Below, one piece after another: positions 36,401 through 63,931 of a DNA stretch of 64,000 nucleotides. The notes beneath the pieces were generated by a model that saw only the letters and a program-made list of their open reading frames with translations, had not been told where the DNA came from and searched no databases. The translations under genes were made by a program, and so were the position numbers. Every line of letters begins with the position of its first letter. Within the stretch, counting starts at the first letter, position 1. The stretch covers positions 38,504,001 through 38,568,000 of the forward strand of contig CM119371.1 of the NCBI GenBank assembly GCA_051294905.1, read 5' to 3'. The stretch comes from Botryllus schlosseri (taxonomy: Eukaryota).

Positions 36401-39400
36401 TGTTAAAACATTAACTGTCTACTATAAATTCTACGTACGCGGCCATAAATGATACAATGTTATATCAACAAGCCTTATAATATGCATGCAATATTCAATT
36501 TTGGGGATAAGGCCCTACTAATTGCGTGGGCATGTTCCATAGTCACTTTCAAGTGGCGCGGTATACACCAATACGGTAGGCCTATATAGTGTCAACTATT
36601 TTATCTTCGCTCTATTTGCGATTGGTGCATCTATCTTCGTACATTGGTAATGTAATCACAAAACCAGTCTATCCAAGGCTTGTTATCTAGCGATAATATG
36701 CGAGCGCAGTAATTGAACATGCTTTGAATGTTAAAGCCTAAAATTGTACTGTGCTATGCAAGTCAACCGCTATACGGGAATAAAATAAAGTATATCAGAA
36801 TGGTGTAAATGACCATTGCATCTCAAAACACCATGAATACAACAAACAACGTTTTGTCATCGTGCTGTGTTGTTGTCACGTGGTCAGATAGTACATGATG
36901 GTGTTGGATTATTTACACAACGCGCCGCAGTTGCGTTATTGACCATTGTATTGCCATCCGATGCTGACAACACTCCAAATTAATCAAATTCCATCACTTG
37001 ACTACAATATCCATAGAGTTTATATCGCTGGGAAACTCTCGGGGATGTAGCTCAAGTGGTAGAGCGCACGCTTAGCATGTGTGAGGCACCGGGATCGATG
37101 CCCGGCATCTCCAGCTTTTACTTTCTGAATTAAATTGATGGTAAATGCAAAGGGATGCAATATATTACGAAATCATCAGGAATAAACAGGATTAGGGCAT
37201 AGATTTCAAACAAAATAAGGCTGTTTCATTCACAATACAAATGATTCAAATCAATCATCTGGCCCAAAAGCCAGCTTTGTGGATGATCCACTTAAATTGG
37301 TACGATGAACGTATGTGCATAGCAATGACCACGCGGTTCGGAGTGCTTAAAGTCATATGCAGAACCGTGACAGCACTTCGTCATCCCCCAAAACGTTGGT
37401 CTTGGGCCCCATAGGATGATAAACCGAACTTATGGGGGGCATCGCCCCCTCAGGCTACACGTTTTTTGCCGCTACTGATCATCCACATTGGGTGCTCATT
37501 TAGTGTGTACGCTTGTTTCGCCTAAACGAACGAAGCGCGAAAAACTTCTATAATTCATGATTGAATCGGTCAATATGATTGGGATTGCATATATATTCCT
37601 ATCAATTTTTATCCCCTCTCTGCTTACGTAATCAAGTTTACTGGTATAGCTGAGTGAGGTGTGTTGGAAAAGGTAGGACCCCTAAGTAAGATTTAAACAT
37701 CTTTGGGCGGACCCGTTCGGTTGGTATAATGACTTCGTTACATGATGCTATTTCGTGACCTCCTATATGCTATGTCAAAAGATATTGAAATCACCAAAAC
37801 GTAGTAAACTAAAAGACGTAGGCCCACACGCGATTTCAAATTGGTATTTCTTTGCTCGCAAACAATATTGCCTCGATCCTTTTCGGCCCAGCTCTTCTCG
37901 CTGCTGATCATTCTGCCACACTTCTCGGAGTCGCATGTTATATGGCCTATAATTTTAAATGTCTTGGTGCGTCGTGGCGCGGTAATGGCCGACGCCGAAG
38001 TGCCCTTTTCTATAAATCATGCGTATTTTGTTGGGGGAAGGGTACCCAATAATCAAGATATTTGACAGCATTAAATCGAGCGCAGGGCGAAAAACTTTTT
38101 GAACGAATTTTTGAAACATTTCCAAAAAAATACTCTATGATTTATTGCAATTCACGATATAATTTGGGGCCCCCTTCGAGCTCGAGCCCCCCGCAATTTG
38201 GGGGTTTGGGGTGTGGCAGTTACGGTCCTGGTTATATGAAACGATATTTTGGGCAAAACTGCATACTTTTCCAACCATGAAAATGTAAATATGCGGCGTT
38301 ACTTCCGCCTATACTTGAGTAGCAATACTGCCTACTTTTTGCACCCTGGTATGTAATCGATCTGAACAATTTCAGGGGTGACATCGGGTCTCAAACGGTT
38401 ACAGAAAAGTTCGATGTCGACCTTGCAACATACATCTCCAAGACAGTCGGTGCTATCGCTGTGTTCGTCGACGGAGCAGGTACGCTATTTAGGTATCTCC
38501 ATGTATATTTTATTTTATATTTAACGCTCTGTGATGCGATGATATTGCAGGTTCCGGTAAAAGAGGAGAGCTACTGCTCCGGGAATCGTTGAAAAAGTTA
38601 GGTGCTCCGGAAATAGAAGATATGGAGACTGTTGTCAGGTAGAACATAGACTATTCCGTTGTGCATTAATTAAGTAGGCCTATATAATATGCTTGGCAAT
38701 GCTTCGACATTTGTTACCAATTGATTTGTCTGTTGGGTTTGACAAAATGTTGGCTGCATGGAAGGATGTAGTATATATACTGAGCTCGATTACTGACTAT
38801 CGCACCTGTGATCACCACTTTTTGTAACAGTTCCTCTATTTTTGGAAATAAACTGCGATCAGCAATTCAGTATTTAAGACTCGAGTGTCGAAAATAATTT
38901 GAAATCGTGTGCCTATGGATCACATCAGAAGATGTTGAACTCCATTCACTTCCTTTAGTGATAAAAGTAGTCGGCCGTGGTACTGAAGTAGAAATAAATT
39001 AAGTAATGCCTTTAATTTATAGTCGATTATAAGTCGCGAAGTCGAAGTTTTCAATAGGTGTCGAAACCACTAGATATGGAAGTATAGAAGGGGTCCGAAA
39101 AATATTAACACCCTTCCAATGATTGGATATGAATCAAATGCGTCAATTGTAATGAACACAATGCAGTGGGTTCTTGCTTCATGCACTATCTCAAATCCCA
39201 AAAGGTGACAGGCCTACACGAAAACAGAACCCGCTAGCTCTGGGCTATATGTTCCTTGTTCATATAGAGACTGGTGCAATTGACTGTTTTTCAGCCTTCG
39301 GAAGGGCGTGAAATCACAAATAGGTACTTGGAAGTACAGTTTACCTGATACCCTGCGATAAGGTGAATTTAGTGAAAACATGTTTTCGTTAACAGTATAC

Positions 39401-41821: not shown

Positions 41822-42927
41822 GTTGATCGAGTTACATCTAGTCGGATAGGCCTAAAGCGTATGTGAATATATTTCTGTGCGGAACTTACGATGATTTGTT
41901 ACCTGACAAGCCGTCACGCGAACGGGCGAAAAATTGTCCAGACCATCAATCGATTGATCGGTGCATTCATCCCGCTATCACCGCAAGCAAATGATGACTG
42001 CTACGTGACGAAAGAATAACGATTAGTAACTGTTATCTTGCCTAATGCTCATTGCTCATACATCAAATCATGTACTCATGGTTTGATGTGATGCTGTCGA
42101 CTGATTTTATGGTTATTATCTGCTGTTGAAGATCCCATGATACTACACAATATTGAAAATGTAATAGGCCTAGATGTTTTCAGATGGGCAGTATTGACAG
42201 CCGAATCTTTAGGCCCTGAGATAAGAAGTGACGTTGCCTATCTTATTGTCCTGTACTCACTAAATGTCCAGCATGAAGGTTATACAAATCCATCCGTAAT
42301 TGATGGGCTATCACATTATCCACCCACTGGAAAGATTCTACCATCGAGACGATTCCCTTTATATTCATAACGTGATCTACTTCAATAGAGAATCACTCCT
42401 GGTTGCATCACCGATCGTTGCATAGCCTATTGCTATCTTTTCGGATTCTATCAATGAACTATACAATTATACATGTCTGGCACAATTTTGATGCGATCTA
42501 TTGCAATAACGTATGTGTGTTTCACTTCATTTACAAACATAGCACTTCCAAGCGAAATTAAACTTTATTCCCTCTAATCTATTTTTGTTTGTCTGAAAAG
42601 TATACTCAATGATATTATTTATACAATGATTGGAAACTCCCACGCCCCTTAACGCTATAAGTTAGGTTTCCGCCGGAACCAGTCCGTCGCAAGAAACGGT
42701 TGAACGGAGGTACGAGATTGAGTTATGTCGACAGTGGAGAGTGCTGCAATCGACCTTGATATACTTGTACACGCTGTGTAGGACGTGTTGCTGAAAAAAG
42801 GTGTCGGCAATGGGATGGGTTTGCAATTGCAATAAAATGAGAATATTTCACAAGCCTATACAGAAGTCTTACTATGGAAGATAGGTATTTTGTCATCTTA
42901 GCCTCCGATATGACATTTAGACAATTC

Positions 42928-43238
42928 TAGGGTTACCATATTTCGGAAATATGAAAAGAGGAGACTTGTTCCAACTTCTCAGACTTACAATTCTGGGGGA
43001 AAATCCGCAAAAAGTGGTAATTTTTCCCGACGTTATGGTCGGTTGACTAAAAAAAGTCATTAGCCGCCGGAGCGTTACTACAGTGCTGATTTGATCTCAT
43101 TCAAATTTTACCCTATACTTAACAAAAATTCTCAAAAAAGAGGACAAAATCTCAAAAAATAGGACATTTGGGCGTCCTCCAAGGACACTTTCAAAAATGA
43201 GGACATATCCTCTTAAAGGAGGACGTATGGTAACCCCA
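42928..43238. mobile_element. hAT (Blackjack-like) MITE
   Basis: TAGGGTTACCATA...TATGGTAACCCCA; GAGGACA subterminal repeats. Confidence 0.7.
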
Positions 43239-43400
43239 GGGCCTGGACTAGACAATGCATATTGGTTATATGCAAGTAACGAAGATATAAATCTTTGTTT
43301 AGTAGCTGTGCATTTGCACTGCAGGTCCCCGTCTCGAGCAGCGTTGGCGCTTGTTATTTACAAATGACCCACTAATGAGACCCCTAATCCCAGTGGTGAC

Positions 43401-43584
43401 CAATCTTCCCTCTAATTTTGGACGAGACTGCGCACACTCACCAACTCACTGCGCAGACCATTGGACAACAGTGCGTAACGCCAAAAAAAGGTCAACACTT
43501 CAGATATTTTGTTCGCAACTTAGATTTTCTTTGCGCAGAGACCGTGTCCGCACTACGCATTTGCGCAGCTTAGAGGGAGCATTG
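43401..43584. mobile_element. hAT MITE, same family as 40396-40595
   Basis: CAATCTTCCCTCTAA / TTAGAGGGAGCATTG; TSD GTGGTGAC/GCGGCGAC. Confidence 0.7.
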
Positions 43585-43803
43585 GCGGCGACAACAACCT
43601 TGTAGCTATGATGAAAATGAACGAGAGAGATAGAGAGAATTATTGTGTGGCGACGACATTCTATATAATAGTTCATAGTAATGGTTTAGGGACGTGAAAT
43701 GTAAAGGCAATACTAAGCAGTCGAATAACTCGAATAATTTTGGTAGGGTCAAGATCAAATCGTTCCGTGTGACGTAGTTGGCGGAGGCCTACTTATTGAT
43801 TCA

Positions 43804-43930
43804 GTAGGAAAGAACGTAAGAAAGGACGGGAAGGACGTAGTTTGTTTTTGTCCTTGATGTTTTGCGGCATATAGGCCTACACTAACTCAATATATGCAAA
43901 ATATATATAGCCTACACATATGCGTACTAT
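43804..43930 (-). mobile_element. Same SINE family, 3' fragment
   Basis: Reverse complement of ATATGCCGCAAAACATCAAGGACAAAAAC...CCTTCC tail. Confidence 0.65.
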
Positions 43931-44682
43931 GAGTGCATGAGAAATTGTTTGTATTTCGGCTTGAAGGTGGACATGGTAGATGACTGTCGGATAGTCGGCG
44001 AGATATTGTTCCACAAACGAGGACCTGTATATTTGATAGAGCGAGGATCTTTTTTGTCTACCATATGGTAGTTGGTCAACGTGGACGCGCGTGTGACTCC
44101 GTGTGTCGTACTTATGCACTTTGGATACTGAGGTAAAGAAGTTGTTGAAGTTTTCGGAGCAGATCGAGGTGGATATTAGATTGAGACACCGTGCTTGGTC
44201 GTCTGGACATTCTCTTATCTGTTCAGTAAATCTTATTGTAGATTGTGTGTAACTGATAAAAATATTAGAACCACTGACTTTTAACTAATTTTAATTCGCT
44301 GTAACAGTGTTTCGCTATTCACTTTCGGTAGAAAGCTAATGAAATAATAAAGTAATTTAATGAAAAAGGCGGAGGGCATTCAATAATAATCTATTGTAGC
44401 GACGATATTCCCGAATGCCTTGATCCTTCCGTCGGATTCCGCAAATTATAGGAAACACATGTTTACCTGAAGAATTTTGCGTTCCCCGTTACACATGGCC
44501 AATTATAAGGGGAATTACCCAAGTATGAAAAGAATTTATTGATTCTTGGTTGAAACTGGGCTATCATAACATGTTATTCGCAGATATATTACTACTCCTG
44601 TTGACGTGAATCTGTAGGGACATAAAGACTTGCTCGTGATATGTAATTTATGAGTGACTTTTCGTCTTTGGTACGCTGAAAA

Positions 44683-47600
44683 ATGTCGAGAATAACCTCA
44701 GATGATGGCGAAGGCGAAAGAGGTACGGTAATTTACTCAACTCTTCATATTCTGGGTTAATAAATACCGCTACCATGTTATCAAAAAAGATTAGGGCAAT
44801 TGGTTATTTGGTTGATAACACATTTTGCAATTTCCGTTAACTATAGTGTTAGAATGCCTGTTGAAGGGAATGTCCTATCCTGACCTGATTTATATCATTT
44901 TTACTTAAGGCCTATATATAATACCATACTTTATAAAGCTTCATATCATATTCCGCTTGAATTTAGTCTTCTATGTAGACTTTAAGATATCTATGGTGCC
45001 ACGTTGAATACCTTGCTCCATACAGGATTGATCCTTTCGACTTGATGTTACCTTTACATACAAAAACTGAACAGGAATTTTTGTATTGACGAAATTGTGT
45101 CACTAGTTCAGTGGAACGATGCTGTTCAATGGACAATGGTTCCGTTCATGTCCAAACATAATGATAATTATATGACAGTTTGTCAATTCTAGACACTGTT
45201 CAGAATTTATCAACCCACAAATTACAATTTAATATTGCACTTGCATGCCTGTTTAATGTTTACAACTGCTGTAGGCCTAGAGAATGTGTGTTTCCGTTGA
45301 GCCTTGCTAGGAACAGAGTAATAGGCGTTCTGAACTATTTAATAATCATCTTGCCAATCTATCAAGATTTTACCTGTAAGAGTTTCTTCAAATTTGGTTA
45401 CCATAATTTTCCATGTATAATGCGCAAAATTTTACTGATTTTTGCCCTAAAATAGGGGGGTGCGTATTATACATGGGTACAGCAAGCCTTGAAAAAAAAA
45501 ATCCCTCAATCAAAAACTTGAAATCACACCTTTGTTCATGTTTGTTTAAATCGTGCATCACATCCAGCCATTGGGCCCCGTAATTCGTATTATAGAGTGT
45601 AACGCGCTGCCACATAGAGAAGCGTGTTGCCAATTAACGAAAAGCGTGTTTCTAATTAAAGAGAGTCGTCTGCAAAGCACGCGATCTCTTGCTGGGTTGG
45701 TTTGCAGTTTGTAGGCGAGCGACATCAGGTCGCTGATTGCTACAAGCGTGCGCGGCAATCCTTGTTGATTCATCGCGTCAACGACAGGCCTTAACAATCG
45801 CATAGGCCTACACAAGATCTGGTAATCGGTTGCATCTCCAACAGAACTGGTGCGCCCGACATAACCGTTGGCCTGAGCAATCGTATCTGTAATTGTAATA
45901 GGCCTCGTGCGCAAGATGTCGTGTGTCCCTAGCCTGAACTATCGCGTCGCCGACCTCACAGGCTTTGGCTACTATCTACTCTCGTTCAGATATAATGCCG
46001 TTAATTGTAATATGATTAGCGATCATTATGTCATGATTGTTCGACAGTGACATCGCAAAACAGAACGACATCGAATACTAAACCGGCCACTATTCATGTA
46101 CTCATGTACTGCGAATGCAGGGTGCGTACTATACATGGGTACAGGCTTTTTCCCGGAATATACACGCCATTTCAAGGGTGCGTATTATACATGGGGGCGC
46201 ACTTTATTCGAAAAATTACGGTAGTTGATTCGTATTTAATTTTATACTCAAAATATCCACACATTTCATATAATGGTCGGTATATTCCATTGTTGATAGT
46301 TTTCTGGCAACCATAGGCTGTTACTCACTCTTTGTTTGCTTTCAGTGGTTCAAAATGTCCTGAACAACATCATAAGAGTGAAGGAACTGACCGCCTCGAA
46401 AAACACGGACAAAGAACTCCTGCAAGCGCTAGTGGGCAATCCGATTGTCCAGTCTCTGGCAAAGGTAAGAGTTGGGTAACAATTTTCTGTTGGAGCAATG
46501 GGCCATACAAAATTTGACACTATATCAAGTAGCGGTTAGTTTATGAAGGCTTATCTGCTATTTAGTTGTGACTTTCGTGTGTGGTAAGGTTGATGTTGCA
46601 TTTATAAAACAGGCTTCACTACGGACGGAGATCATAAAATTAGCTGATCTGGGAGAATGCTAATGATGTGATTAAAAACTGCTAATCGGGACGCACTTTA
46701 GGCGGAGATCGTAAAGTTGGCTGATCCGGCAGAATGCAATCGTGGGATTAAAAACTACAAGTCGCGAAGCATTATGTTGATTGGTGTCCCTAGTTTTCAA
46801 TTAAGTGGTGTTATCTATTGCATCGTAATGCAAAAACGTGGTTTTGGATGTCGGTTGCTTTAGAAACTACTGGTATCATAGATTATAATCAGATTAATAG
46901 GAGAAACCACTTTTCAAGCCGAAACCTGGCCAAGTGTGGCACAAGTTTTGCACAGTAACCTGGCATCAATCTGCAATTACTCCCAGGCGCACACTGGGAT
47001 TACCGAGAAGAAAATCAAGCCAGTCGTGCTGGAAGCTTCCGAATTGTCTACCTCAATCTGTAATCTGCTGGATGACTCTACAGGGGACTTGTGTGTGGAA
47101 CTTAGCAGGGTCCTCAGCACGCCTCACATTGTGGTTTGTTTTAAGTTTGTTGATTTTAAGATTTGATCGAGTTGGATGAATTTAAGTGCATTGTCTGTTC
47201 AGTTAGAACCAGAGGTATTCCAGATCTAGTTTAGGCTGAAAATTGTGAACCGACACGATAACGTAATGGTGAAGGGTCCTGCTTCTTGATTGATATATCG
47301 GGGGTTCAATCCCCGTCCAGGTCAGACCGAAGACCTGATTAGTAATACTGGTATCCATGACTTCCTCGTTTGGCACTCAGCATTACCGTGTTAGCATGGA
47401 GAGATGGTACAAGACTCAGAAGGCCTTACACGGCTATATCTGCACCTTCCTTGTAGGTAGGCCTACTCGGAAAACAGGTTTCTGCGTCTACTTTCCGTTG
47501 AGCTGACCTTTTTTCAGTCAACTTTCTGGTCGTATGCAGAATAAGCCGTATTCACTTGCATTTTTTGGCTGTGTTGATTAAATATATCTCGCTGGACGTT

Positions 47601-50600
47601 TTAGCCCCCTTTGCTATTTTCGCCCACTTGTTTCTCAAAATCGCCCACTGGAGGATGGTATCGCTCACGTTGTGAACCACTGGTTTAGATTTTACTGCAT
47701 ATTCGCTTAGGCCTATCTATCATTTACAATCCATTTTGATTGCAGGCCTTGCTAGGCTGTCACGACTCGGTGGCTAAACGCAGCAATTTGACCCCAGGAA
47801 AATCAGACTCAAAGACATCAAATGGATCCAAGAGTCTTCCTACGAAGAGTAAGTTCCCTGTGGTGTTCTGCTCTATGAGGGCAGGTTTCAAAGTATGCAA
47901 AAATTGTCTGTGTTTGCAACTAGTCGAGAATTGAAAATAACTTTGTATATCAACAATCCTATCACCAACTATGATGACACTGATGTGAAAATTCGAGTAA
48001 TCCAGGCGAGCAGATAGCTTAAGATCAATCTACTATAGAGATTGTATCTATATTCCTGTTCCTAGAGCTTCTCGGAGGTAGAGGACTACAATATAGGCTA
48101 CCATTGAATAGTATATTCATATTGAAATGAACCCGTATATTTTCGGCTGATACTCGTCCAATGTTCTATATAATATTAATGAATAATATAGAATATACAA
48201 AGTTATTTCCAATTCTCTACTAGTTGCTGACGATTACTCCTGACGAGTGTCAGCCCAAAATATTCCGGTTCATTTTGATATGAATACACTATTCCGGTGC
48301 TTTTCAACCTTTTTGAGCTTCATTCGCACTTTTTTTGTAAAATTAATTTCATTCGCACAAACTAACCAGAAATTGTTATACAAAAAGTAGATGAAAATAC
48401 GACATTTATTTGTTCAGATGTGCAACAAATTGGCTACTATGTATCGTAAGTTATCAAGTGCCTCTTTAAAAAGGCTACCGGTACTATTTTCGCTCGTTTT
48501 GATTTCAACAATTTCACTAAAACCCCTTTCGGCCAAACAAGTTGTCGGGTTTTATACAAGAACGCCTACTAGTGCCTAGATGGCCAGGTCTTAAAATCTG
48601 TTCTGCACTCCTATCCAAAATACAACGTATTTTTCACGAGTGATAAATGCTTGCTGGAAGAAATCGATTTTGATAGCTGACAAAAAGGTCTAGGAGGCTC
48701 CAATATGTAGAACGGGTGAAAAACCCACTTGTTTGTATCGAGGCATTTGCCTCATGTCTTGGAAAATAAGGCCCAAACGATCAAGCAGAGTAGGCATTAG
48801 GCACATTAGAGTCCGCTACCTTATGATACGTTGCTCCAACTTTTTTTTCAATTTCCCATTTTCTGTCTCGCTAGTATATGTGGGAAGAGCAAATAAACTC
48901 ACGATACTGTGTGTTCTGCTCTTTAGCTCAATCTAACTTGAGAATTCATAACAGTTTAATAACGTTAAAGCAGCGTTTTAGATTAGGCCTACTACCAAAA
49001 TCTGAGTTTTTGCGGCATCTCGCAACCCGAGCCTCACCCATGAAACGGAATTCAATATCCATATTACAGTAGTATGCTACGATTTTACGGACATGTAGGC
49101 CTATGACATACAGAACGCGCACACCATAATTCTATCCAACACTGATCTACAAAATATGTCTGACGCACGCGATTTCAAATTAGGGTGAATTAAATTCCTC
49201 GGCGTGTCTACTGTCTACTCAGATTGCAAGAACGGGACTATTCCGTGCCGATAACGGAGCATATCTATACCGAATGGTTTGGTGATCCTGAATCGGTAAT
49301 TTTTGGCCAAGGTTCTGTCGACGCTCATGTTTTGGCACCGCATTTTATCAGCGGCTTGTTGGCCAAAACGTTACGTCGTCATGTGACCCGACGCAGACGG
49401 GGTTGGCCTCGAAATGAACGAGTTTCACAGACCCGAACTCGCTCGTTGCACATCTCTAGTCCCTACACTAGTTCATCCCAACGCTCTTTGACCATGTTTA
49501 CAAGTCGGACAAATCTTATCATGAATTCTCATGATAAAGTCATATTTTTTGCGTGTCACGCTTGCTGGCTACAGTACCCAACATAGTAACCTTGGATATG
49601 TAAAAACTATCGCAGCATTTCGTCATTCGCACTGAATTTTTTTCATTCGCACATGTGCGAACCGTCACACAGGTTGAAAAGCACTGCACTATTCTATTCT
49701 TATCACTTTATGAGCAAATGGTCAATCTCCACTTCATCATGTAGTATGGATATAAAAAATTATTATAGTTGGGAGTTGTCACTGCAGGCATTTTCAGGGT
49801 CTCAGTAATTCAATCAACCTATAAGGTGATATTTCATCAACTCATCATCAATTCTTGAGCAAAATATGTAACGCCCCAAATGTATATATAATGGTTTCTC
49901 TAAACACATGAACGTGTTTGGAATCATCTCAAGACTACTGCATTATTGTGCCTTGTAGTATGTCAGCATCCAAGGAATCATTCACCACCATTCAGTAGGC
50001 TACTGTAAGTAAATATGTCCCCTGAGATATACGTCATGCAACATTCCTTGTGTAGTATTGAGTCAATAGGCCTTTGACTTGTGTTGGTTTCTAAGACATT
50101 ATTCTGCCTATTGTGCAATGTGCATCCTAGATGTATCCTGTGCTGGTAGTAGGGTTCACTTGCGAAATTGTGTCCTTGTTTTCACTTCCTTGTTGTGGTA
50201 ATGTATAGGCCTACAATGTATAGACTTGCATGCATAACATATTATGTTCTGGTCCCACATTGCTGACTTAATTAGAGACTTTTCTATGCTGTGCTTAGTA
50301 ATTTGAAGACGCAGGGGAACCAGTACTTTCCTGTGTGGCTTATTATTATAATATGTTGTGTCATGACTTCAGCAGTGTTTAGTATACCATGTAAAATACA
50401 GTTACTGACCCAAATCCCATGGAATGGAGGATTGAATTAGTCTGAATGTTGATCGACTATATACATTTTGTTACAATTGGATTTGATTGAATAGTATATT
50501 CATATTGAAATAAACCGGATTGATTGGCTGACACTCTATAATATATATTTGTGATACGATTGTTGATATACAATGTTCTTTCCAATTCTCTACTAGTTGC

Positions 50601-53600
50601 TGACGATTACCCCTGACGAGTGTCAGCCGCAAATATATTTCAATATGAATATGCCATGCAATTGTATAATGTATATTGTATGTGTGTACCTCTAAATGTG
50701 TTTTTAAGAGTAATTTGAGTCTACTTCGATCAAATATTTAAACTTCAACTCTCAGAACTGGATATTCTCAGTTCTGAAAATTCCATTACACCGTTCACAA
50801 TGGTGATTGTGAAACATATTGATTCATCTGTGTAACCTGGCCAGGACCCTATTTACAGACAAGTGTTAATGAGTATTTCTGTGTGTTCCAGCCTCCAAAT
50901 GGGTTCTCGTATTTGGAATGTCTTGTTGACATTAGACACTGTCGCCGCCTAATTCAATATTCCCTAACACAGTTCACAGGACTGTGTCAATTTGCTGTTC
51001 TGTCTCAATATTTCATTGAAACTACTTCTTGCAATTGTTCTTTTAAGCTAAATTCTGAATTTGTATTGTGTTCATTTTACCGCATAGGGTAAATCTCTCA
51101 ATCAATGCATAGCAAACTTTTCAAAATACTCAAAATACTTCAAAATACTTTATATTGTTACAGTGACAGAAGAAACGCCGATGAGAGCTGTTAGAATGGT
51201 CGGGATGTACAAGAAGTCATGGGAGCCGTTGGTAAATAGATAACTCTATCTAACTAAGTGAAAGAATTGAGATTAACCCCCGGACGATTCCAAATCAATC
51301 CCTCAAAGTTAAGAAACATTCATGTATTGGATGTGTATTTTTAGACTCAAGTTCTGTAAGCCGAGAACAGGGGTCACCAACCTATTTGTAACCAAGAGCT
51401 AGTTATTTGGTACCGATTAATGCATGCAGGGTTATAACCAAGTAACAAGTCGAATTTACTTTCATAATTTTGACTCGAGTTCGAGTCATAGTGTTGTGAC
51501 TCGAGTCCAAGTCATTGTTTTCACTGTTCAATTTTGAGTTCCATCCGTTTCAACCCACTTTTTGCACTCTGCTCAAGTGATATACAATGGCTCGCAATTC
51601 ATAATACCGTCATTTTCCTCAGTCCTAACAGTTTCTGGCCCTATTTTCAGAGTATGAGGTCTGATAAACGAAATATCGATAATGTGGTGACTACTATTCT
51701 TCGAATTTGCAATGAAATATCTGTCTTGGCCGACCTAGTGTCGAGTCATATGACTTGTCTCGAGTCATGCACATTGACTCGAGTACAAGTCGAGTCAATA
51801 GACAAATTGACAGGAGTACTAGCCGAGTCATTTTACGCATTTGTAAAAATGACCTGAGTCAAGACGAGTCACAATAAAATTTGTGACTCAAGTCGAGTCA
51901 TGACTCAAGTCAATCCAACCCTGATTTTTCGGCCCCGTTAGTCGAATATATCTCACTGAACGTCCTAACATTTTCGCCCCCCCTTTGGTATTTTCGCCCC
52001 CTTGTTTCTCAGAATCGCTCGCGTGGCCTATCCAACCGATAACAAAAATATGTTTTTTTTCGATGCATTTCCAAAACTTATACTGACTAGTAACTAGTTT
52101 GACCATGTCTGCTCGTGTGCCACATACCTGTACTGTACTATTTCAGGGCATCACTGTCGTGAAAGAGGACAAGCAATTGAAGATAGCCAGGATACTTCAA
52201 GGCAGTGAGATTGATAAGAAGGGTCTACTGCACATTGGTATGTGTCACTTTTTATATCGGATTCGAGCATTGAATGTTGCTTAGGGAAATAGACTCTGGT
52301 GTTCCATCAAGGTAATTTTTGCGTTTCCTTCCTTCAAAATGTCTCTGCGTATTTGTAGTGTCGAACTATTGAAGCTGTGCTTTTCATTGCAGTATAACAA
52401 TGTCAATGCTAGCACGTAAATGAGTGGGAATATGGTTTTCTGTACACACTCGAGCAGTGTTTTTCAAAAGCGGTGTCCTTTTGAGGACCGCGAAGCATGT
52501 TCAAAAAATTCTAACGATCCAGAAAAATGATGTTTTGAAGCATGAAAGATTTTAGCAAACTTATTTTTTAAACCAAACTCGAATGTGGCCTGACAATCTA
52601 TTATTAAACAACGTGAAGTAGGATATTTTGTTGCACTGGGGCTACTTCTTCAAGGAGTGCCTCTGTAATACACTTCTGAGTCCTACTCAATTCCCAGTAT
52701 CACATGAATCTCTTGAAATTCAATATTCATACTGAAATGAACCCAAATATTTTCGGCTGACACTCGTGAGGGGTAATCGTCAGCAACTAGCTGAGAACTC
52801 AAAAGAGCATCGTATATCATCAATCGTATCACAAAATATGACGTCACCAGCATGAAATTTCGAATGAGAGAGCGTTCAATGTACTATTTTTAGGTGATAC
52901 ACGAACTCCTTTTGTCAACGAGTGTCAGCCGAAAATATTCAGGTTCATTTCAGTATGAATTCACTATTGAATTGTATATTGAAGTCCTGTTCTTCCAAGA
53001 AGCTGTTCAAATCTCCTGAACATGAATGAAAATTGTTGTGCAATACCAACGAAACCAGCTCGATCGCTGTGTAATTTTCCAGACGACATCATTCTGGAAG
53101 TGAACGGCACCGCGATAAACGGCGACCCAAAGATTTTGAAAGACTACTTGATCAAAGCCACGGGATCGATCGTATTCAAAATACTTCCGAGTTACGAGGA
53201 AAACCAAGTGCCCAAACTGGTAAGTGGAGGCGGGGTGGGATTATGTTGCGTCTGATCGGCAGACCTGTACAAATCACTGGATTTTCAAAATGCTTAACTA
53301 GAACTGGAACTACTCACTTTTGAAAATATGCGACAAGAGGTGGAACCACACAAAAAGCATTCGTTAGCTGAGCATCAGCTACCTAGATTAGTAGTTTGTA
53401 TGTGTATAAGTTTGCCTATCAGATGCTGTTTTTCAGGTCTTCTCACTCTCCGGGGTTGTAACCAAGTCGCAAGGTTCCAAATCTCAAGTCGACCTCATGT
53501 TTATAGTTTTGACTCGTGTCAAGTCGAGTCATTTTCAATTCACCACCGAGTCAAGTCCGAGTCCATAGTGTTCTACCTCGAGTCTAAGACACTGTTGAGT

Positions 53601-56600
53601 TCAGTTTCCAGTAAAATCCACTATTTTTAACTCTGTTCGAGTGATATAGAAAGGCTCGCATTCATGATATCGTAATTTTCCTCAGTCCTAACACTTTCTG
53701 GCCCTATTTTGCAAGTATCAGGACTGATAGACGAAATAGCAATTATGTGGTAGCTTTACTATTCTTCGAAGTTACAACGAAACATCTGTTTTGGCCTTCA
53801 TAGTCTCGAGTCATATGACTTAATTTCGAGTCATGCACAATGACTCTAGTATAAGTTGACTCGATACAAACATTGACTCAAGTCGAGTCATCACACCCTA
53901 CAACGAAAGTAATAAAATTGTAGATGTTTCTTTACCTCCCATGGCTGATACCAATATTTTTGGCAAAGTGTGATATCTACTCCATATTATCGGCAAACAG
54001 TCCTGACTCCGGTCATGCTTTCAAATCCTCACCGTGACAAACTGGGAAGGAAATTCTCTTTTGTTTCAGTTATACCTCAAGTGTCATATCGACTATGACC
54101 CGGAGAAGGACAAGCTCACTCCCTGCCACGAGGCCGGCCTTGGATTCGCGAGGGGTGAAATTTTGCAAGTCGTAGACCAGACCGATGCCGATTGGTGGCA
54201 GGTGCGTACTAAAAGACTTTGACTACGGGATAACAGCATTGTCACAAAGTGCTATGAGATATGCATGGTCAAAATATGCCAAATTATCTTCAACGTGATG
54301 CAGAACTTGACATTATATTTTTTGTGGTCATGTAAAAAGGTACATAGGTTCTTGAAATTTCCACATTTTTCATACTGTTGTGATGTCGCTATTAGTGATA
54401 CTCGAATACTAGATTCGAGGCTTAATACTAGATTCAGAATCAAATCACTCAGGTACTAGGTTTAACCTAGCCTTAATTGTGTCGCATCAAATATATTGAA
54501 TGAAGGGCGGCTTTACATACAGTGGTTCCCAACATTTTTGGCTTCGTTCCCCACTTCAGATTTATTCCGAGTCTTCATTCCCCACTACCCAAAACTCCTA
54601 TGCACCCTTTAAACTTTTTATAAATTCTGAAAGCTCAAAGAAAGCAGATAATTTTGAAGAATTTTCGGCTATTAATAATGTGTTGACTGAAAAAGAGGTC
54701 ATCAATTTCACTCGGCTCCTGATTTTTTACGAAACTCTGACGTTCGCCGCATCAGAGTCGCATTTTTCATGGCATTTCAGAGAAAACGAGGACAAATTCC
54801 CAAGAACGAGGAAATTTAGGCGTCCTTCGAGGACACTTTCAATTTATAATTTTGGATGCATAGTTTCCAGTGCAGTTAACTGGTAACGGTAATCGCACAT
54901 GTGTCTCCATGAATATTTCGACTATCCCGTATATAACGTTGAACAAATGGTTTTATTCCCCACCAGAAACCATTGAATTCCCCACCAGTTGGGAACCACT
55001 GGTCTGGTCTACAATGTATCGTAATTGTGTAAATCCTTTAACTGCAGGCGAGGCGTGTCAATAACAAAGGCGAACCTCGTGGTAGAGCAGGACTGATACC
55101 GAGCCAATCGCTGGAGGAAAAACGAAGGTCGATGCAAGAGATAAACTCCATCTTGCCAGAAGGTTGGTTCACTGAAAATACATTCATTTGTTGCCACTGA
55201 TATCCTGATATAAGTGAAATCATTTACGTTGTGCAGTATTCTCTTACCCACGAAAACATGGCGATCGCAAACCAGGGTTCCCTATGAACTAGTCAATATA
55301 TGTAGTGGTAGACCTACAGTGTTGCTTCTGACAACCTATCAATTTCGGGGGGTAGCCAGTGAAATTTGAGACATTTCCATGAATATTTTTATCAAATAAA
55401 TACAAAATTTTCTACAACCATAACTTTGCTCCAATCTAGTACTTCAACGTTCAACTAACTGCTGGTTTTTTGAGTGGTCCTAGTTCTGGTTGTGGATTTG
55501 AACGGCAGTTTGTACAAGAATACGTATAAATTTATGGTGTTTATAGTTGGCTCATATGGTTGGTGTATTTTGATAAAACTTTTATCAAAATACACCAACC
55601 AAAACTCTGTCAACAAAAGGAGTTCGTGTATCACCTAAAAATAGTACATTGAACGTTCTCTCATTCGAAATTTCATGCTGGTGACGTCATATTTTGTGAT
55701 ACGATTGTTGATATACAATGTTCTTTCCAATTCTCTACTAATTGCTGACGATTACCCCTGACGAGTGTCAGCCGAAAATATTCGGGTTCATTTCAATATG
55801 AATATACTATTTAATTGTATATTGAAGTTCTGTACCTCCAAGAAGCTCTTCAAATATTCTATCCTCAAAAACGCCAAGAACACGGACTGTTTCGCTCACC
55901 GTCTGAATTATTGGTGTTTCTTTGTGTGGGATTCATGGTGTCTGTCGACTGCAATGGTCACCAGGCTGATATTTCTTACTTTTTTATTCTGTATCTGTCG
56001 ACTTGTAGCACGGCCCACTTCTAGGCTTTTTTAAGACAACAGCCTAACCTCGAACGATAAACCTCGAACACTTAGGTAGAAATTCTGTAGTCGGACTCGA
56101 ACCCACAACCCATTGGTGTTGCGGCCGTTATTATATCAAAAAATTTCTATAAATTCAATTACTTATGTATATCTTGTTACAGATAGAAGGAGATCAAAAA
56201 AGAGAAGGTCCACGCGAAGAATGTACAGCGTGTCGCAGAATTCGGCTTTCGACAAGCACGACATTGCGGTGTATGAAGAGGTAGACTTTCAAATTTTGTT
56301 TGAATCTACTCTTACTGTTCGTGAAGTGATCTGATGACCTGAGGTGTTGAGAAGGACATTCGTTTGCTTTATCGGAGCACTCAAACATGATTTTTCTTAT
56401 TTGCACAGCGTAAAGTTGTAGATTTTACATCACTCCCGCTATGCCATTACTTGATAGGGTTGGAGTTCTTCCGATGCTGCTAGATCAGCTTTTCGACAAA
56501 ACTACTTCCTTCCTATATTTTTATCTTATTTTTGATACCATAAGACAATTTTGGGACAAGTTTGCTTCATTTTTACTGGTGAAATTGTCATAAGAACTTT

Positions 56601-59600
56601 GTATCGTAGTAACTGAATATATGTTCTGCAGGGTTGTAACCAAGTCACAAGGCTCACAATCACAAGCCAATCTCACTTATATAGTTTTGACTCGAGTCAA
56701 GTCGAGTCATTTTCAATTCACCACCGAGTCAAGTCAGGTCCTAGTGTTTTGACTCGAGTCAGAGTCCAAGTCATTACGTTCACTATTCAATTTCAAGTTC
56801 AATCCGGTTCAAGTCACTTTTTCAACTCTGCTCGAGTGACATAGAATGGCTCACATTCCTAATATCGTAATTTTCCTTAGTGCTAACAGTTTCTGGCCCT
56901 GTTTTCAAGTATCAGGACTGATAGACGAAATACCAACAATATTGTGGCGACTTCATCGGAGTTACAATGAAATGTCTGTCTTTGCCGTCGTAGTCTCGAG
57001 TTATACGACTTGGTTCGAGTCATGCACCATGACTCCAGTATAAGTCGAGTCAATACAAAAATTGACCCGTCGACTCATTTCATGCATTTCAAAAAATGAC
57101 TTGAGTCAAGTCGAGTCACCAAAAAAATCGTGACCCGAGTCATTAAAACCCTGCCTCCAACTAACTGCTAAAACTATCCTAGTACCCTAGAAGTCACTTG
57201 CATGTTTGTTTTTCAGACATGTCAATTTGTGGTTGCACTTGGAGTAGTTTTTGACATACCGCATCTTGCAATCGCTGCTAGTGTAGTAATTTTTTGGACA
57301 TTTCGCAGGTGGCTTGCATTCCTCCCATATCGAGAAAAACTATTGTCATTCTGATGCAAAGTATGTCAGCTGCAGAGACAGTCGCCAGGCGGATTGCGGA
57401 TTTAGAGCCGGAAGTCTACGGCATTGCCGACAACGGTCAGAAGCTATTATACTTCATATGTTTCAGTCATCACATGTGAAATGGATTGGTATATTCATAT
57501 GGAAACGAACCCGAATATTTTCGGACGACACTCGTCAGGGGTAATCGTCGGCAACTAGTAGAGAATCTCATGTGTGCCTTAAAGACAACGTTTGTCAAAA
57601 TACACCAGCCAAGGCTGGGCCAACAAAAGGAATACGTGTAGGCTACTATCTAAAAATAGTACATCGAACGCTCTCTTATTAGAAATTTCATGCTAGAGAC
57701 GTCATATTTCGAGATACGATTGTCGATGCACGATGCTCTTTCCAATTCTCTGCTAGTTGCTGACGATTACCCCTGACGAGTGTCAGGTGAAAATGTTTAA
57801 GTTCATTTCAATATGAATGTAGCCAAATAAATATTCAGTGCAATGTTTTCGTTAGCGTGAAAATTATACTTCAACAATTTTGTTCTTTCAACACTATGTT
57901 GAAGCAAAGTTCATATTCTAGTGCATCTGTAATCTTCAGTAATATGTTACATGTGTATTGTGGTAGGTTTTTGTTTTATGACTCACAAACAAATTAGGTT
58001 TTGCGAAGACTTGTAGATTAGCATAAGTTTGCGCAGGTTGGTTATGGTTTAGAACAGTGGTTCCCAACCTTTTTCGACCCATCGCCCCCTTTTCAAGGTC
58101 AACACCGATCATCGCCCCCCAAATTTTGTGTACCGAAAATTTGGCATACAAACTGTAATCACCGGCGGGTTGACTAAAAAAAAAAAAAAGGTCAAATTTT
58201 CGGCTCGACGTCTAATTTGACACACTTTTGTAACTAAATTTCCGTGGGTTGACTGAAAAAAAAAAAAAGGTCAACCGTTTTGACTCGTCATCGCCCCCCT
58301 GTCGCCCCCTTCGTCATTTTCGCCCCCCTACACTGCCAAATCGCCCCCTGGGGGGCGATATCGCCCACGTTGGGAACCACTGGTTTAGAAGCACTGGTCT
58401 AGATCTTATCCGAATTGGTTTTTATAATTTCATGATTTTTTTGTTTTTAGCGGCTACGCTTTCTCGAATGTCAACGCTTTCCAGATCAAAAGACGGCAGA
58501 GAAGAATTGAATGGTTGGTGTTATGACATCATTATCGGAGACGGACCACTAGAAAACTTCAGCTTTTCCAAATTTGTTTAGAATTAGAATTATAGTTACA
58601 TAGTGTACATTCCAAATTGTATTAGAATTATAACTACACATTTGAGTCGAACCATCCTTTTGGGTTGATTGCAGAGATGCTGACCGAATAGCCGGCTAAT
58701 CTCTGATCGCTCTAATTAGGCATAATATAATCCGCAAGTAAAGTCACCTGGTGGCCGTGTTGCACAAATGTCTGCGATTTGAACTATATCACTGGCTCAA
58801 ATTGACGCGAATGACGTGCGTCAGCATCATGCCTGGGGTGCGTTTGGACCGTGTTGCCCTTTTACCCTTCGTGGTATTTTTGGACTGATCATCGTGACAT
58901 GACATACCCAGCCTGGTGATTCGAATTTAGCAGATTAGAATTCTACGATTAGTGGCTAATCGTCATCTGTGGAACGGAGGCTGGACAATTACTGACATTT
59001 TAATCGGCGATCACGTTTGATTGGCATCTGCGTAACATTAGGGTTACCATATTTTAGAACCAGAAATGAAGGCATTTTTCACGAGCTGCAAAAGTGAATT
59101 TCATTGAGTTGACTAAAAAAAAAGTTAATTTTTCCAACTCAACTTTGGAAATACCCGGGTCTCGCCAATTCGGCTCACATTTACCGTAATTTGCGGTCTT
59201 TATGGGCATTTTAGGCCAAAAATAGAGATAAGCGATGGGTAAACGTTTCCTGAAAATTGAGAAAGTATGGCAACCCTATAGCCTACAACCAAGTCTTAGG
59301 ATGTTGTAATACTCCCTTGCCCTAATGTTTGAAGCGATTCTTGGACCGTCAAGATAGCGTGAGGGTTAAGCGTCCGGCTTCTTAATCGGTAGGTCGTGGG
59401 TTCGATTCCCGGCCGGGTCAGACCAAAGACCTGATTAGTAACAATGGTATCCATGACCTCCCTGCTTGGCGCTCATGCATTACTGGGATAGCATGGAGGG
59501 GTGGTGCATGACTTTGAAAGCTGTACAAGGCTATACCTTCACTTCCTTGTCCAGCAGCATATGCACATCACGCACTCATGGTATGCATATGCGCAGATCG

Positions 59601-61409
59601 TGTGTATGTGTATCATGAGTCGGTGTATATGCCGCAAAAACATCAAGGACAAAAATAAACTAAGTCTTCCTTCCTTACGTCCTTCCTTCTTGGAGGCACA
59701 GGACTTCAATATAGGCCTACATTTAAATTATAAGAATTCTTTTCAATTCTCTACTAGTTGCTGACGATTATCCTTGGTTTACTTTAAGTTGAATATATTA
59801 GTCAATTGTTCCAACGCTCCTACTTTCAGGAGAGCACGGAGACACAAGCACAGGAATGGAATTGTTGACGGCTCGTGAAATCATAGGATCAGGGAAAATT
59901 TGCATCTTGGTTGCGTCACCACAAGTGCGACTTTGCTTTTGATAAATCTTGTTATTCGTTCCGAGGCATTCGCACTTTCACGGTTTTGACTCGTCTCACA
60001 GTCATACTGTTCAGTGTTCTCTTACAAGCTCAGATCATTTTCAACTCGCTTTTTACAAATCTGCTTCAGTGATATGGAATGCCTCACATTTACAATATAG
60101 GCCTACTAATTTCCTTGCTCACTCTCACAGTTTCTGGCCCTATTTTCCAAGTACCAGTACTGATAGACAAATTACAAATATTGTGGTGACTTTACTATTC
60201 TTTGAAGTTACAATGAAATGCCTGTCCTGGCCGTCCGAGTCTCGAGTCATATGACTTGGCCGAGTCATGCATATTGACTCGAGTAGGCCTACAAGTTAGT
60301 CAATATACAAAGTTACCCGAGTCGAGTCATTTTTAGTAATTAAAAAAATGACTTGAGTCGAATCTCGAGGTAAATATTGTGCTGCAATGATTCGATTCTG
60401 AAAACAGAATTAGGAGATACTTGAAATATTGGAGTATCACTGATCATGAAATCGTAAGAGTATAAATGTCGAAATTTTGACTAGTTACCTTTTATTCTGC
60501 ATCACACTAACGCTCGTTTGGTGTTTTATGATAGCACCTAATTCATTGCGCTTTGTGACTATCCAGTGCGTTGATGACGACTTCCCCACCTACCAACATT
60601 AATATGACTAAACGAAAATAATAGTTGTTCTACATCATGTTTTCGATAATTTGGTGTCTTTTCGGCCGTATCATTTCCGTCGATATTTCCAGACGCTGAA
60701 AATTGTGCGGACCTCGGAGTTTTTGCCGTATGCAGTTTACGTTAAAGCAGACAGTGGGCACATGGAAAGCTTTGGAAAGGTAAGGCAAAACTTCGATATG
60801 CATCACATTGGGTATTTTGGACCAGGGGTCCCCAGCCTACGGGCCCTGAAAAAAATTTGAAAATGTATTAACTTTAAGTGTACTACTCAACTACAACAAA
60901 AGAAATAAATTAAAATCCTCTGAAAATACTGGTATAGCAATAGGCTCATTAATCTCGAGTTTATTTTATTTTCCACGCCACCAAACCAGCAATTAAGACA
61001 TCATCACTCATGTAGTTTTGACTCTAGTGAAGTCGAGTCATTTTCAATTAGCCACCAAGCCCAAGTCGGCAATCAGAGGGTCGATTCTGAATCTTAGTGT
61101 CTAGATAAAGTTATAGGCAACCCAACTTTTTACATCTATAATTGGGTGATATAGAATGTCTCGTATTCATAATGTAGTAATAAGCATCGAGCCGTAGTTT
61201 AGCTATCAATAATATATGGTAATTACACCTGCAATCCTGTGTTACAGAACTACGAACTGTCCAGCAAAGATATCGAACGGTACTACATGCAGTACATAGA
61301 TTCCGTGGTGGACTTCTCAAACTGGGACGACGTGGCAAAAACTATCATAGAACAAATGAAATCTCTGGAAACGCGACACCAATGGGTGCCCACAAGTTGG
61401 GTGTACTGA
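44683..61409 (+). CDS. MPP2/MPP6: MAGUK p55-subfamily scaffold (L27-L27-PDZ-SH3-HOOK-GK), MPP2/MPP6(PALS2)-like; 15 coding exons, 527 aa
   Basis: Exons: 44683-44722, 46346-46464, 46987-47133, 47746-47848, 51164-51231, 52147-52237, 53083-53219, 54070-54201, 55048-55162, 56183-56280, 57309-57435, 58451-58513, 59830-59924, 60693-60779, 61248-61409 (sum 1584 nt, phases consistent). Motifs: NPIVQSLAKAH (L27), AVRMVG..EPLGIT..IARILQGSEIDKKGLLHI (PDZ), [38 protein letters not shown] and GLIPSQSLEEKR (SH3), RTSEFLPY, C-terminal QWVPTSWVY*. Confidence 0.92.
45401..46221. mobile_element. Tc2/pogo-like MITE
   Basis: TA-flanked TIR CC(A/G)TAATTTT; internal repeats GGGTGCGTA(T/C)TATACATGGG near both ends. 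Confidence 0.7.
46620..46773. repeat. Diverged tandem duplication, 77-bp period
   Basis: CGGAGATC...GCTGATC...AGAATGC...GATTAAAAACT starts at 46626 and again at 46703. Confidence 0.7.
47248..47452 (+). mobile_element. Same SINE family, 3'-truncated
   Basis: Collinear with 59344-59550. Confidence 0.75.
48065..48294 (-). mobile_element. Family A fold-back copy, tail on the left, interrupted by a hAT MITE
   Basis: AGCTTCTCGGAGG tail followed by inverted arms. Confidence 0.7.
48295..49686. mobile_element. hAT non-autonomous element
   Basis: TIR C(G/A)GTGCTTTTCAACCT; perfect TSD CACTATTC; TCATTCGCAC subterminal repeats. Confidence 0.85.
50483..50693 (+). mobile_element. Family A fold-back copy
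   Basis: Short inverted left arm; the right arm has a mutated GAAA (GCAA). Confidence 0.7.
51427..51923. mobile_element. GACTCGAGTC-rich MITE copy
   Basis: CAGGGTTATAACCAAG...CAACCCTG; collinear with 56629-57153. Confidence 0.75.
52718..53009 (+). mobile_element. Family A fold-back copy
   Basis: Long left arm, short right arm with tail; flanking near-direct repeat AATCTCYTGAA (52707-52717, 53010-53020). Confidence 0.75.
53451..53900. mobile_element. GACTCGAGTC-rich MITE copy
   Basis: Collinear with 56629-57153. Confidence 0.75.
54520..55001. mobile_element. hAT MITE
   Basis: TIR CAGTGGTTCCCAAC at both ends; TSD not preserved. Confidence 0.65.
55558..55851 (+). mobile_element. Family A, longest single arm with a short 5' inversion
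   Basis: Hairpin GGTTGGTGTATTTTGATAAAA-C-TTTTATCAAAATACACCAACC, then an arm of about 270 bp ending CCAAGAAGCTCTTC. Confidence 0.8.
55744..55787 (+). ncRNA. Minimal type I hammerhead ribozyme (family A), intact
   Basis: Identical motif to 3687-3730. Confidence 0.8.
56629..57153. mobile_element. GACTCGAGTC-rich MITE family of about 500 bp (CAGGGTT...AACCCTG ends)
   Basis: Related copies at about 51427-51923, 53451-53900, 59985-60370, 10910-11217 plus 14295-14350, 14370-14807, 28290-28430, 61005-61170 and 3950-4470. Confidence 0.75.
57478..57820. mobile_element. Family A fold-back copy
   Basis: Inverted arms of unequal length; boundaries approximate. Confidence 0.75.
57509..57552 (-). ncRNA. 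Minimal hammerhead ribozyme (family A) with variant loop II
   Basis: Reverse complement reads GCCGAC-gatt-ACCC-CTGACGA-GTGTCGTCC-GAAAATATTC-GGGT; core intact. Confidence 0.65.
58055..58382. mobile_element. hAT MITE, young
   Basis: TIR CAGTGGTTCCCAAC; perfect TSD GTTTAGAA; TCGCCCCC repeats. Confidence 0.9.
59039..59278. mobile_element. hAT (Blackjack-like) MITE
   Basis: TAGGGTTACCATA / TATGGCAACCCTA. Confidence 0.7.
59344..59690 (+). mobile_element. tRNA-derived SINE, near full length
   Basis: A box TAGCGTGAGGG, B box GGTTCGATTCC, conserved body CCAAAGAC...CTCCCTGCTTGGCGCTCA, (CCTT)n tail. Confidence 0.8.
59684..59800 (-). mobile_element. Family A fold-back remnant abutting a SINE tail
   Basis: CTTCTTGGAGGCACAGGACTTCAATA tail plus CAATTCTCTACTAGTTGCTGACGATTA. 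Confidence 0.6.
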
Positions 61410-62607
61410 TATTCTGTTTTTACGGTTCATATTTCTTTGCTATTTCTTATGCTTATTAACTTTTTGTTTCAAACGTGCGATATAACACCCTTTTCTTTTT
61501 ATTTTGCGGAAATTGGACGCCATATTTGCCATTGACGAATCACAGCCAGAGGTGGTTAAAGTATTCAACTTTGCTGTTGAACTGGAAGCAGACTTCGAAA
61601 ACTAGAAAATATTCAGCTGAATTAGAATAGACTTTGAATAATAGCTACACATTTTTTCTAATCCGACTGGAATTAGAATTATAACTACAGTTTTTTCCGA
61701 ACTGGATTAGAATTCAGTTATTGAAATTGGTCGTTTAACGAAGGTCGCTTCATAAATAATAACCAGAGTTTATTCTCTAAGCATGAGAATAGCAAATTTC
61801 GTATCACCAAGCTAGGCTTGTTTCGCACGATACACTTAGCCAGTAATATTTTCAGGAAAACCAGAATTAAGAATTAACGTTGGAGCATGGAAACATTTCA
61901 CAAATTATATTAGAATTAGTTTACCGGTATTTTGCTGAAATTACTATAATTAGACAACCATAATGACCTTGTTGTCCAAGTGTGGTCCGAACAAATATTA
62001 GTCACTTGAGTAAGTGCAGCGAGTAGGTGAAGCTCAATGCATACTCTGTAAGAGTATAACGTCTTTGATGACCACCTCTGATCTTCGTCATGCATATTAC
62101 GTCAGCATCGATTTTATTTCATCTCTGTTTTTCATCTCGGTTTTCTTTGGTTTTTTATATGCCGAATTCATTATCTTTCGCTAATAACCCAAAATATCCG
62201 AAATCATTAACCGTGCGCAAGTGTTCCAGTGTTACATACCTAAACGTATCAAAAACCTGCCCACCAGACCTCATATATTCTGTACGGCCAATATTAATCA
62301 AACGAATATCCATTGGGTGAGATTAGCGTGCGCATTAATTGATGTTCTACAGTGCTACACCCACTCCAAAAGTGGTCATAAAATACATTCGGAACCAAAA
62401 TAATAAGCGAACCATTAATATTTTCACCGATGATAACAAGTCAATATCGCACTTTAAAAAAGATATAATTTTCGGCCATTGAAGATTAAAAAAGATCGCA
62501 CTATTTGTAAAGAGTCTCATTAGTATAATCTTGCTTGCTAGGCTGGGAATATTGCTCTGTTTCTTGCGTTGTATCGTTGTTGTTACTTGTATAGCCTACA
62601 TGTAATG

Positions 62608-63606: not shown

Positions 63607-63931
63607 GGGGAGATAGCGTAGTGGTGACGAAAAGCGCCCCGGTTCAATTCCCGCCAGGGTCCATCTGGACTCTTATTCTCCAGACAGAGACCCGACGAAA
63701 GAAAGAACTCTCAAGGAATGAAAAGGGCCGTTGTTTCAAAAAGATCAACATCGATAAGAACTGTCACATCGGGCACTCTAGGCGGAGGTGGAAGTCAGTC
63801 TAACTAAAAGGATCACAACTAGCCTACGTGTCGTTCGATATCCTTCCATCCGCTCATGACATCGCATTGTACATTGTGTGTGACTTGTTTTGGTGAAAAA
63901 TGTAACCCAACGATTATTATTAGTATTATTA
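63607..63931 (+). mobile_element. Possible second SINE family
   Basis: A-box-like TAGCGTAGTGG, B-box-like GGTTCAATTCC, (ATT)n tail; single copy in this window. Confidence 0.45.

Follow-up and report, generated by a model that had tools for sequence, protein, structure and literature searches.

The 64-kb stretch of Botryllus schlosseri DNA analyzed here (64,000 nucleotides of contig CM119371.1, hereafter the window) contains 33 sites occupied by one of a small set of words, the eight-letter palindrome TAGGCCTA and the seven-letter TAGGCTA and TAGCCTA. These words are real small derived insertions at TA and not ancestral parts of a repeat consensus. Their core is unreported, and they are probably transposon excision scars. 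Neither the word TAGGCCTA nor elements of the IS630-Tc1-mariner (ITm) type with GGC ends were found in literature listings and abstracts, a scope outside which lie Repbase, Dfam, subscription papers and supplements.

Word counts, empty sites and target preference

The palindrome is far more frequent than base composition allows. The window has 18 copies of TAGGCCTA per 64 kb, compared with 0.26 +/- 0.46 (maximum 2) in 100 dinucleotide shuffles and 0.38-0.46 under a second-order Markov model, and the word ranks first among the 256 palindromic 8-mers of the window (z 28.7). An initial annotation had counted about 18 by hand where about one was expected, and all 18 are present where it placed them. 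The seven-letter forms, TAGGCTA (7) and TAGCCTA (8), total 15 versus 4.0-4.6 expected (Poisson p 9e-5), about 4 of the 15 being attributable to chance. The words occupy 33 of 4864 window TAs (0.7%) and about 0.3% of the window length; none falls inside the 716 bp of Pfam-matched exon, a stretch too short to judge exon avoidance. Ten of the 18 TAGGCCTA copies lie inside 10 kb (p 0.005 versus random TAs), and the seven-letter words are not clustered (p 0.83). The flanks of the 18 TAGGCCTA copies are mutually unrelated, and the core is constant whatever the flank, in both orientations (GGCC 18, GGC 7, GCC 8).

Alignable sibling repeat copies are available for 7 of the 33 sites, and 6 of these 7 are 5-6 bp longer than their siblings with the TA kept. 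The change from TA to TA-GGC(C)-TA is clean at four of the seven, untidy at two and unsupported at one:

43872-43879, no strand: TAGGCCTA in a copy resembling a short interspersed element (SINE); +6 versus one clean sibling at 59623 (reverse)
48094-48100, + strand: TAGGCTA in repeat family A; +5 versus four clean siblings, and also versus 220-254 run contigs
57639-57645, + strand: TAGGCTA in a family A copy; net gain of 5, right junction untidy
59712-59719, no strand: TAGGCCTA in a family A fragment, at the repeat position of 48094; +6, with an exact left flank and a right flank that is short and diverged
60098-60105, no strand: TAGGCCTA in repeat family B; net gain of 6, with extra mismatches at an untidy junction
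60284-60291, no strand: TAGGCCTA in family B; clean +6 versus four siblings
43908-43914, + strand: TAGCCTA, unsupported as an insertion

The micro-insertions that the initial annotation had proposed at 60284, 43872, 48094 and 59712 are therefore seen against their siblings, while at 57639 its net gain of 5 bp stands with extra mismatches beside the untidy junction. It had also allowed that the motif might be ancestral in the repeat consensus; the siblings lack the insert, and 220 (X1) and 254 (X3) family A contig records from two sequencing runs align as far as 48099, where their consensus continues upstream without it, which is why we regard the words as derived. The copies at 48094 and 59712 have one upstream variant in common with a third, insert-free copy, so that a single event followed by a 1-bp change may account for them as well as two hits at the same site. 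Family A itself (3553-3815 and 10 or more copies) is of the fold-back kind, and its internal parts vary; a depth of about 130,000-190,000 in X1, where single-copy DNA has about 17, points to copies in the thousands, depth being no true copy number.

The insertion sites favor R-TA-Y. With the insert removed and both sides of the 33 sites counted (66 sides), C follows TA at 32 sides (p 1e-6; the background rate is 21%), while 54 sides have a pyrimidine there (p 8e-6) and just 5 have G. A second TA lies five or fewer bases away at 62% of sides versus 43% (p 0.001), and the sites at 1408, 36572, 49996, 50206 and 62592 could possibly be read as chains of TA-bounded units.

Recurrence in metagenome DNA, run contigs and age

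A scan for runs of three consecutive motifs gave at least 120 metagenome loci (L001-L120) and 17 viral-collection loci. The pool analyzed consists of 73 of the 120 loci (302 kb, selecting matches masked), after dropping L081-L120, which have short flanks, and seven others that are bacterial-like, GC-rich or tandem arrays; a strict pool of 61 loci (234 kb) omits 12 more and masks 300 bp on each side. The pool loci are animal-like, with a rhodopsin-family receptor match and a TA-flanked mariner-like element, and have no blastn match to the window. In the pool TAGGCCTA occurs 193 times versus 2.5 expected, the 5-bp form 142 versus 24 and a 7-bp form, TAGGGCCTA/TAGGCCCTA, 19 versus 1.0; in the strict pool the counts are 125 versus 1.7, 88 versus 17.6 and 14 versus 0.7. 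Two words with other cores are enriched in the pool as well, TACATGTA (CATG core, 34 versus 6.9) and TACCGGTA (CCGG core, 12 versus 2.1). A pyrimidine follows the motif TA at 288 of 386 sides. Comparing loci with one another, 4 of 29 six-letter gaps are TAGGCC at TA, three of them outside the selecting match:

L018:5025, L030:4882, L041:1702 and L016:2040: six-letter gaps at the motif versus partner contigs

L016 and L120 have two motifs in common and a third in one only, and tandem-array loci gave mixed results. Repeated hits at one TA or TATA would give TAGGCCTAGGCCTA, found in 14 of the 120 loci, and TAGGCCTATAGGCCTA, found in 17, in loci that were selected on the motif. The 17 viral-contig matches to the triple motif were left out, as they mostly lack surrounding enrichment. 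A family A probe had no match in metagenome or viral contigs.

Within the window, contigs of four sequencing runs (X1-X4), which represent one sample that is possibly the source of the assembly, were placed over 37130-52700 at likeness 88. A fifth run (X5, share 0.06) contributed nothing beyond pieces of 85-95% and one edge overlap, at 47708, and was excluded. The region holds 16 of the sites, and among the pieces listed six are bridged by at least 31 letters and three lie at a piece edge, the other seven falling outside these pieces. X1 contigs bridge five motifs without a differing letter or a gap, and contigs of X2 and X3 span the five too; since the run contigs carry the motifs, they are not an artefact of the assembly. 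One X2 record (record 13, 44102-45401) could fit a 6-letter loss; the distances to the contig end, if measured in contig letters, speak against 45272 as its place. Haplotype divergence is uneven along the region, about 5% with 15 gap letters over 38128-39026 and about 0.5% over 40973-42357, and the contigs over 49663-50213 are of half depth.

Decay of the word gives a rough age. One-mismatch variants number 17 in the window versus 12.1 expected (p 0.11), and we estimate the decay of the scars at about 3% per base and below about 10%, while host repeat copies are 73-77% identical per column. Given this low word decay, the scars would be younger than the repeats that host them, which says nothing for current activity.

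Probable excision footprints and the alternatives

The words are probably excision footprints of a cut-and-paste element of the ITm type with GG(C) ends; the transposon, its family, its ends and its overhang length are what we infer. Under this scenario, an element whose ends start with GG, most simply GGC, would insert at TA with a preference for R-TA-Y and duplicate the TA. On germ-line excision the transposase would leave 3' overhangs of the first bases of the element, which end joining would seal. With a 3-nt GGC overhang, full overlap would yield TA-GGC-TA or TA-GCC-TA, a 2-nt overlap through the self-complementary terminal GC would yield TA-GGCC-TA (TAGGCCTA), and a 1-nt overlap would yield TA-GGCCC-TA or TA-GGGCC-TA, so that the 5-, 6- and 7-bp forms would arise from overlaps of 3, 2 and 1 nt. 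Because each scar would add a TA, the same site could be hit again. All three predicted products are present in the pool; the window has just the first two. GG ends with 2-nt overhangs would account for the 6- and 5-bp forms too, but they predict 4-bp forms as well, and these are unenriched; GGCC ends with a 4-nt cut would give the 6-bp form and explain the large 5-bp class poorly. As between the three, we lean slightly toward GGC ends with a 3-nt overhang, hold GG with 2 nt to be a good deal less probable, and GGCC with 4 nt about half as probable as that.

Known systems offer partial parallels. The Minos footprint adds 6 bp, four bases of the element end and a TA, and GGCC ends would in this way yield TAGGCCTA from either strand, but the 5-bp class, which here is about 60% as large as the 6-bp class, is not easily produced by such a scheme. 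Tc1/mariner transposases cleave the non-transferred strand at a point within the element, so that 3' overhangs remain, and published footprints consist of the first or last 2-4 element bases between two TAs (PMC6943129, PMC3878927). The canonical footprints of Sleeping Beauty and Frog Prince, TACAGTA and TACTGTA (PMC6943129, PMC3878927), resemble the present words in having three fixed bases between TAs in two reverse-complementary forms (TAGGCTA 7, TAGCCTA 8), but here the core is GGC/GCC, the 6-bp palindromic form is commoner and the parent is not in hand. Caenorhabditis elegans Tc1 leaves 2-nt 3' overhangs, a filled-in pair of which gives TA-xx-yy-TA, and with GG ends that would be TAGGCCTA; unlike the present words, germ-line Tc1 repair is far more varied, with 26 products in 103 animals (PMC4490562), and the TAGGTA/TACCTA that it would predict are unenriched here. 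Plant Stowaway/Mariner excision likewise retains the TA duplication with end bases and is a natural source of small indels (PMC4561436, PMC4423477), whereas rice excision sites are mostly deletions or filler and not one fixed word (PMC4423477).

The window also provides a partial internal control, a parallel word together with a candidate for its parent:

45399-46223, no strand: element between two TAs, its terminal inverted repeats imperfect and ending in CCG on the right and CCA on the left; contig depth very high

We take this element to be pogo/Tc2-like, and it is a candidate parent of TACCGGTA, which occurs six times versus 0.6 expected (8854, 13298, 23510, 27799, 48476 and 61922). Two of these sites are doubtful, 61922 being ancestral in its repeat and 27799 lying in an ACCGG-rich stretch, which leaves 4 versus 0.65 (p 0.004).

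Several observations weigh against excision footprints of this kind. Neither the 64-kb window nor the 120 metagenome loci yielded a TA-flanked, GG-ended inverted-repeat element, and so the claim is that the words work like a Tc1/mariner footprint, not that they are one. The decayed TA-flanked mariner-like element of the pool (L070:2257-3494) was rejected as parent, its ends being CAC. In the window, 26 of the 33 sites are without a sibling and hence without an empty-site control, two of the six supported sites have untidy junctions, and 43908 fails as an insertion, one sibling likewise carrying GCCTA. The no-overlap product expected of GGC ends, TAGGCGCCTA, is absent from window and pool; TAGGTA/TACCTA, expected of GG ends, is unenriched (21 versus 25 in the window, 98 versus 89 in the pool, 69 versus 65 in the strict pool); and the window lacks the 7-bp form, which in the pool may be slippage. 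The parallel with TACCGGTA is weakened by TACCGTA/TACGGTA, which are unenriched in the window (7 versus 6.2). In rice and in the germ cells of C. elegans, excision repair yields products far more diverse than a single word (PMC4490562, PMC4423477); messy excision products would escape a word count. Among the metagenome loci, L068 and L077 both carry the motif at an aligned site, and as the loci were chosen on the motif, the pool speaks for recurrence and not for prevalence.

The run contigs weigh on the same side. An X2 contig over 40973-42357 differs at seven single-nucleotide polymorphisms (SNPs) without gaps across the motifs at 41409, 41847 and 42165, a hint that these three are common to both haplotypes and only a hint, because contigs mix alleles. 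Among the 12 of 50 indel rows listed for contigs of this one sample, no motif was seen polymorphic and no filled allele was seen at a motif locus. The initial annotation's "very active" transposon is thus not borne out. Of its further proposal, a TA-targeting transposon with GGC...GCC ends, the derived TA insertions and the fixed core hold, while no such element was found in the window or the loci and GG or GGCC ends would also fit.

Candidate parents were also sought directly. Searches of the window for TA-flanked, GG-ended inverted repeats returned internal parts of other repeats, and a candidate at 37819-37949 was dropped, because the alignment of its two ends is poor and the repeat seems, from loose-end consensuses at 37959, to extend beyond it. 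No GGC ends are named in the available parts of PMC7386202, PMC8533490, PMC10379824, PMC11071193, PMC4455052 and PMC9976928, whose supplements may hold the parent family; in the same ITm literature, Sailor ends are GT or CC.

Given that a parent is not in hand, the footprints might belong instead to a cut-and-paste element outside the ITm type, one that likewise makes a TA duplication and leaves behind bases of its ends. TA flanks occur beyond the ITm elements too, as the window element at 22827-24879 has them with CACTG ends. We nevertheless consider such an origin unlikely, since hAT and Harbinger elements fit badly with a fixed core: a hAT-type scar would be a palindrome of the flank specific to each site, where the same core is seen at all sites, and a PIF/Harbinger 3-bp duplication is not seen, only TA being repeated at the clean sites. 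The Zator target duplication is TAG; G follows TA at only 5 of 66 sides, at odds with such a target, and the window has no TAGGGCCTAG-type words. In published work Zator makes 3-bp duplications (PMC10045372), Harbinger/Tourist excision is mostly precise and hAT footprints copy the flank and so differ by site (PMC4561436), though PHIS elements, with duplications of 0-4 bp (PMC10045372), would leave some room for this origin. An origin without any element, in which a nuclease, either of the host or domesticated, or else a repair pathway common to distant animals writes GGC(C)TA at R-TA-Y breaks, would suit the uniform, clustered products, their recurrence in unrelated animal-like DNA and the lack of a parent in the window and metagenome loci. 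The lack means little, however, as only 64 kb of this genome was searched; polymerase-theta inserts copy nearby sequence (PMC4490562), from which no single fixed core is expected, and transposon ends predict varied cores, with CATG and CCGG also enriched in the pool. We rate it marginally below the non-ITm origin.

It is improbable that the word is an ancestral repeat part, a selected binding site or a slippage product. The copies at 45803 and at 48094/59712 may be inherited, L068 and L077 share the motif and some pool loci are tandem arrays, but the word-free siblings and run contigs contradict this account at the four clean sites, the empty sites offer no local template for GGCC, and the 18 flanks are unrelated. 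The least credible of these accounts is an artefact of sequencing or assembly, for instance a ligation junction. It is suggested by a palindrome around a six-base restriction-type core and by runs from one sample, possibly the source of the assembly, and it is contradicted by the five motifs bridged without differences; the flanks are also collinear with siblings on both sides, 5-bp and decayed forms exist, and the same signature recurs in unrelated data.

If excision footprints are the correct reading, past excision has added small insertions to non-coding DNA on a measurable scale, the length spectrum preserves in nature how an unseen transposase cuts, and the word can be used directly as a query for the parent element. 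What is known of such footprints comes mainly from assays in the laboratory. New here is the GGCC core, with 5-, 6- and 7-bp forms together; the gain is modest, as the mechanism class is textbook and the parent is not in hand. That the words mark an undescribed, widespread lineage of GG(C)-ended, TA-targeting transposons is a tentative suggestion, likelier than an origin without any element, and we would sooner doubt it than assume it.

Remaining sites and other elements of the window

The remaining sites are as follows:

1408-1419, + strand: TACTG-TAGGCTA, possible compound scar
8600-8606, + strand: TAGCCTA
9619-9625, + strand: TAGGCTA
10413-10420, no strand: TAGGCCTA, no sibling in window
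18942-18948, + strand: TAGCCTA
23479-23485, + strand: TAGGCTA
31130-31136, + strand: TAGCCTA
31873-31880, no strand: TAGGCCTA, no sibling in window
34200-34207, no strand: TAGGCCTA, no sibling in window
36572-36584, + strand: TACGG-TAGGCCTA, possible compound scar, as we infer
38675-38682, no strand: TAGGCCTA, spanned by a diverged contig with no room for a clean 6-letter loss if gaps count letters
41409-41415, + strand: TAGGCTA, bridged in three runs, SNP-bearing contig gapless
41847-41854, no strand: TAGGCCTA, bridged in three runs, SNP-bearing contig gapless
42165-42172, no strand: TAGGCCTA, bridged in three runs, SNP-bearing contig gapless
42423-42429, + strand: TAGCCTA, no sibling in window
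45272-45279, no strand: TAGGCCTA, bridged by X1 with 0 differences
45803-45810, no strand: TAGGCCTA, within the TA-flanked element 45401-46221
47454-47465, + strand: TAGG-TAGGCCTA, immediately beyond a SINE-like copy
47708-47715, no strand: TAGGCCTA, no sibling in window
48984-48991, no strand: TAGGCCTA, no sibling in window
49096-49103, no strand: TAGGCCTA, no sibling in window
49996-50007, + strand: TAGGCTA-CTGTA, possible compound scar, on a half-depth contig in three runs
50206-50220, + strand: TAGGCCTA-CAATGTA, possible compound scar
59279-59285, + strand: TAGCCTA, at the end of an inverted-repeat element
62592-62604, + strand: TAGCCTA-CATGTA, possible compound scar
63820-63826, + strand: TAGCCTA

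Two runs of TGTACA had been put forward as a second footprint type:

18885-18912, + strand: TGTACA run, short tandem duplication or serial scars
41378-41399, + strand: TGTACAA tandem run, whose short units slippage or serial scars could make

The counts are weak (TGTACA 30 versus 24, TACATGTA 2 versus 1.6) and lend such a type no statistical support; TACCGGTA is the better candidate. TACAATGTA occurs five times versus 1.2, yet three of the five lie within the two TGTACA runs, and two of the four window copies of TACAGTGTA/TACACTGTA are element ends, not scars.

The window is animal DNA of 40% G+C with many short repeats and with short exons matching dipeptidyl peptidase IV, PDZ and SH3 domains. 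At 41501-42370 (+ strand) lies a decayed frame with several stops in single-copy DNA, in which two TAGGCCTA copies keep the frame; two stop-free pieces have no Pfam match, and Atlas matches are under 0.9. The element at 22827-24879, which is presumably EnSpm-like, is about 2 kb long with CACTGTAAAAA-type inverted ends and TA on both flanks, and a near-perfect palindromic element of about 450 bp with 180 bp arms lies at 8661-9112. Four near-identical tRNA-like copies occur in both orientations (21566-21651, 25487-25572, 35626-35706 and 37039-37119), and a further tRNA-like gene was recognized by eye at about 40198-40270.

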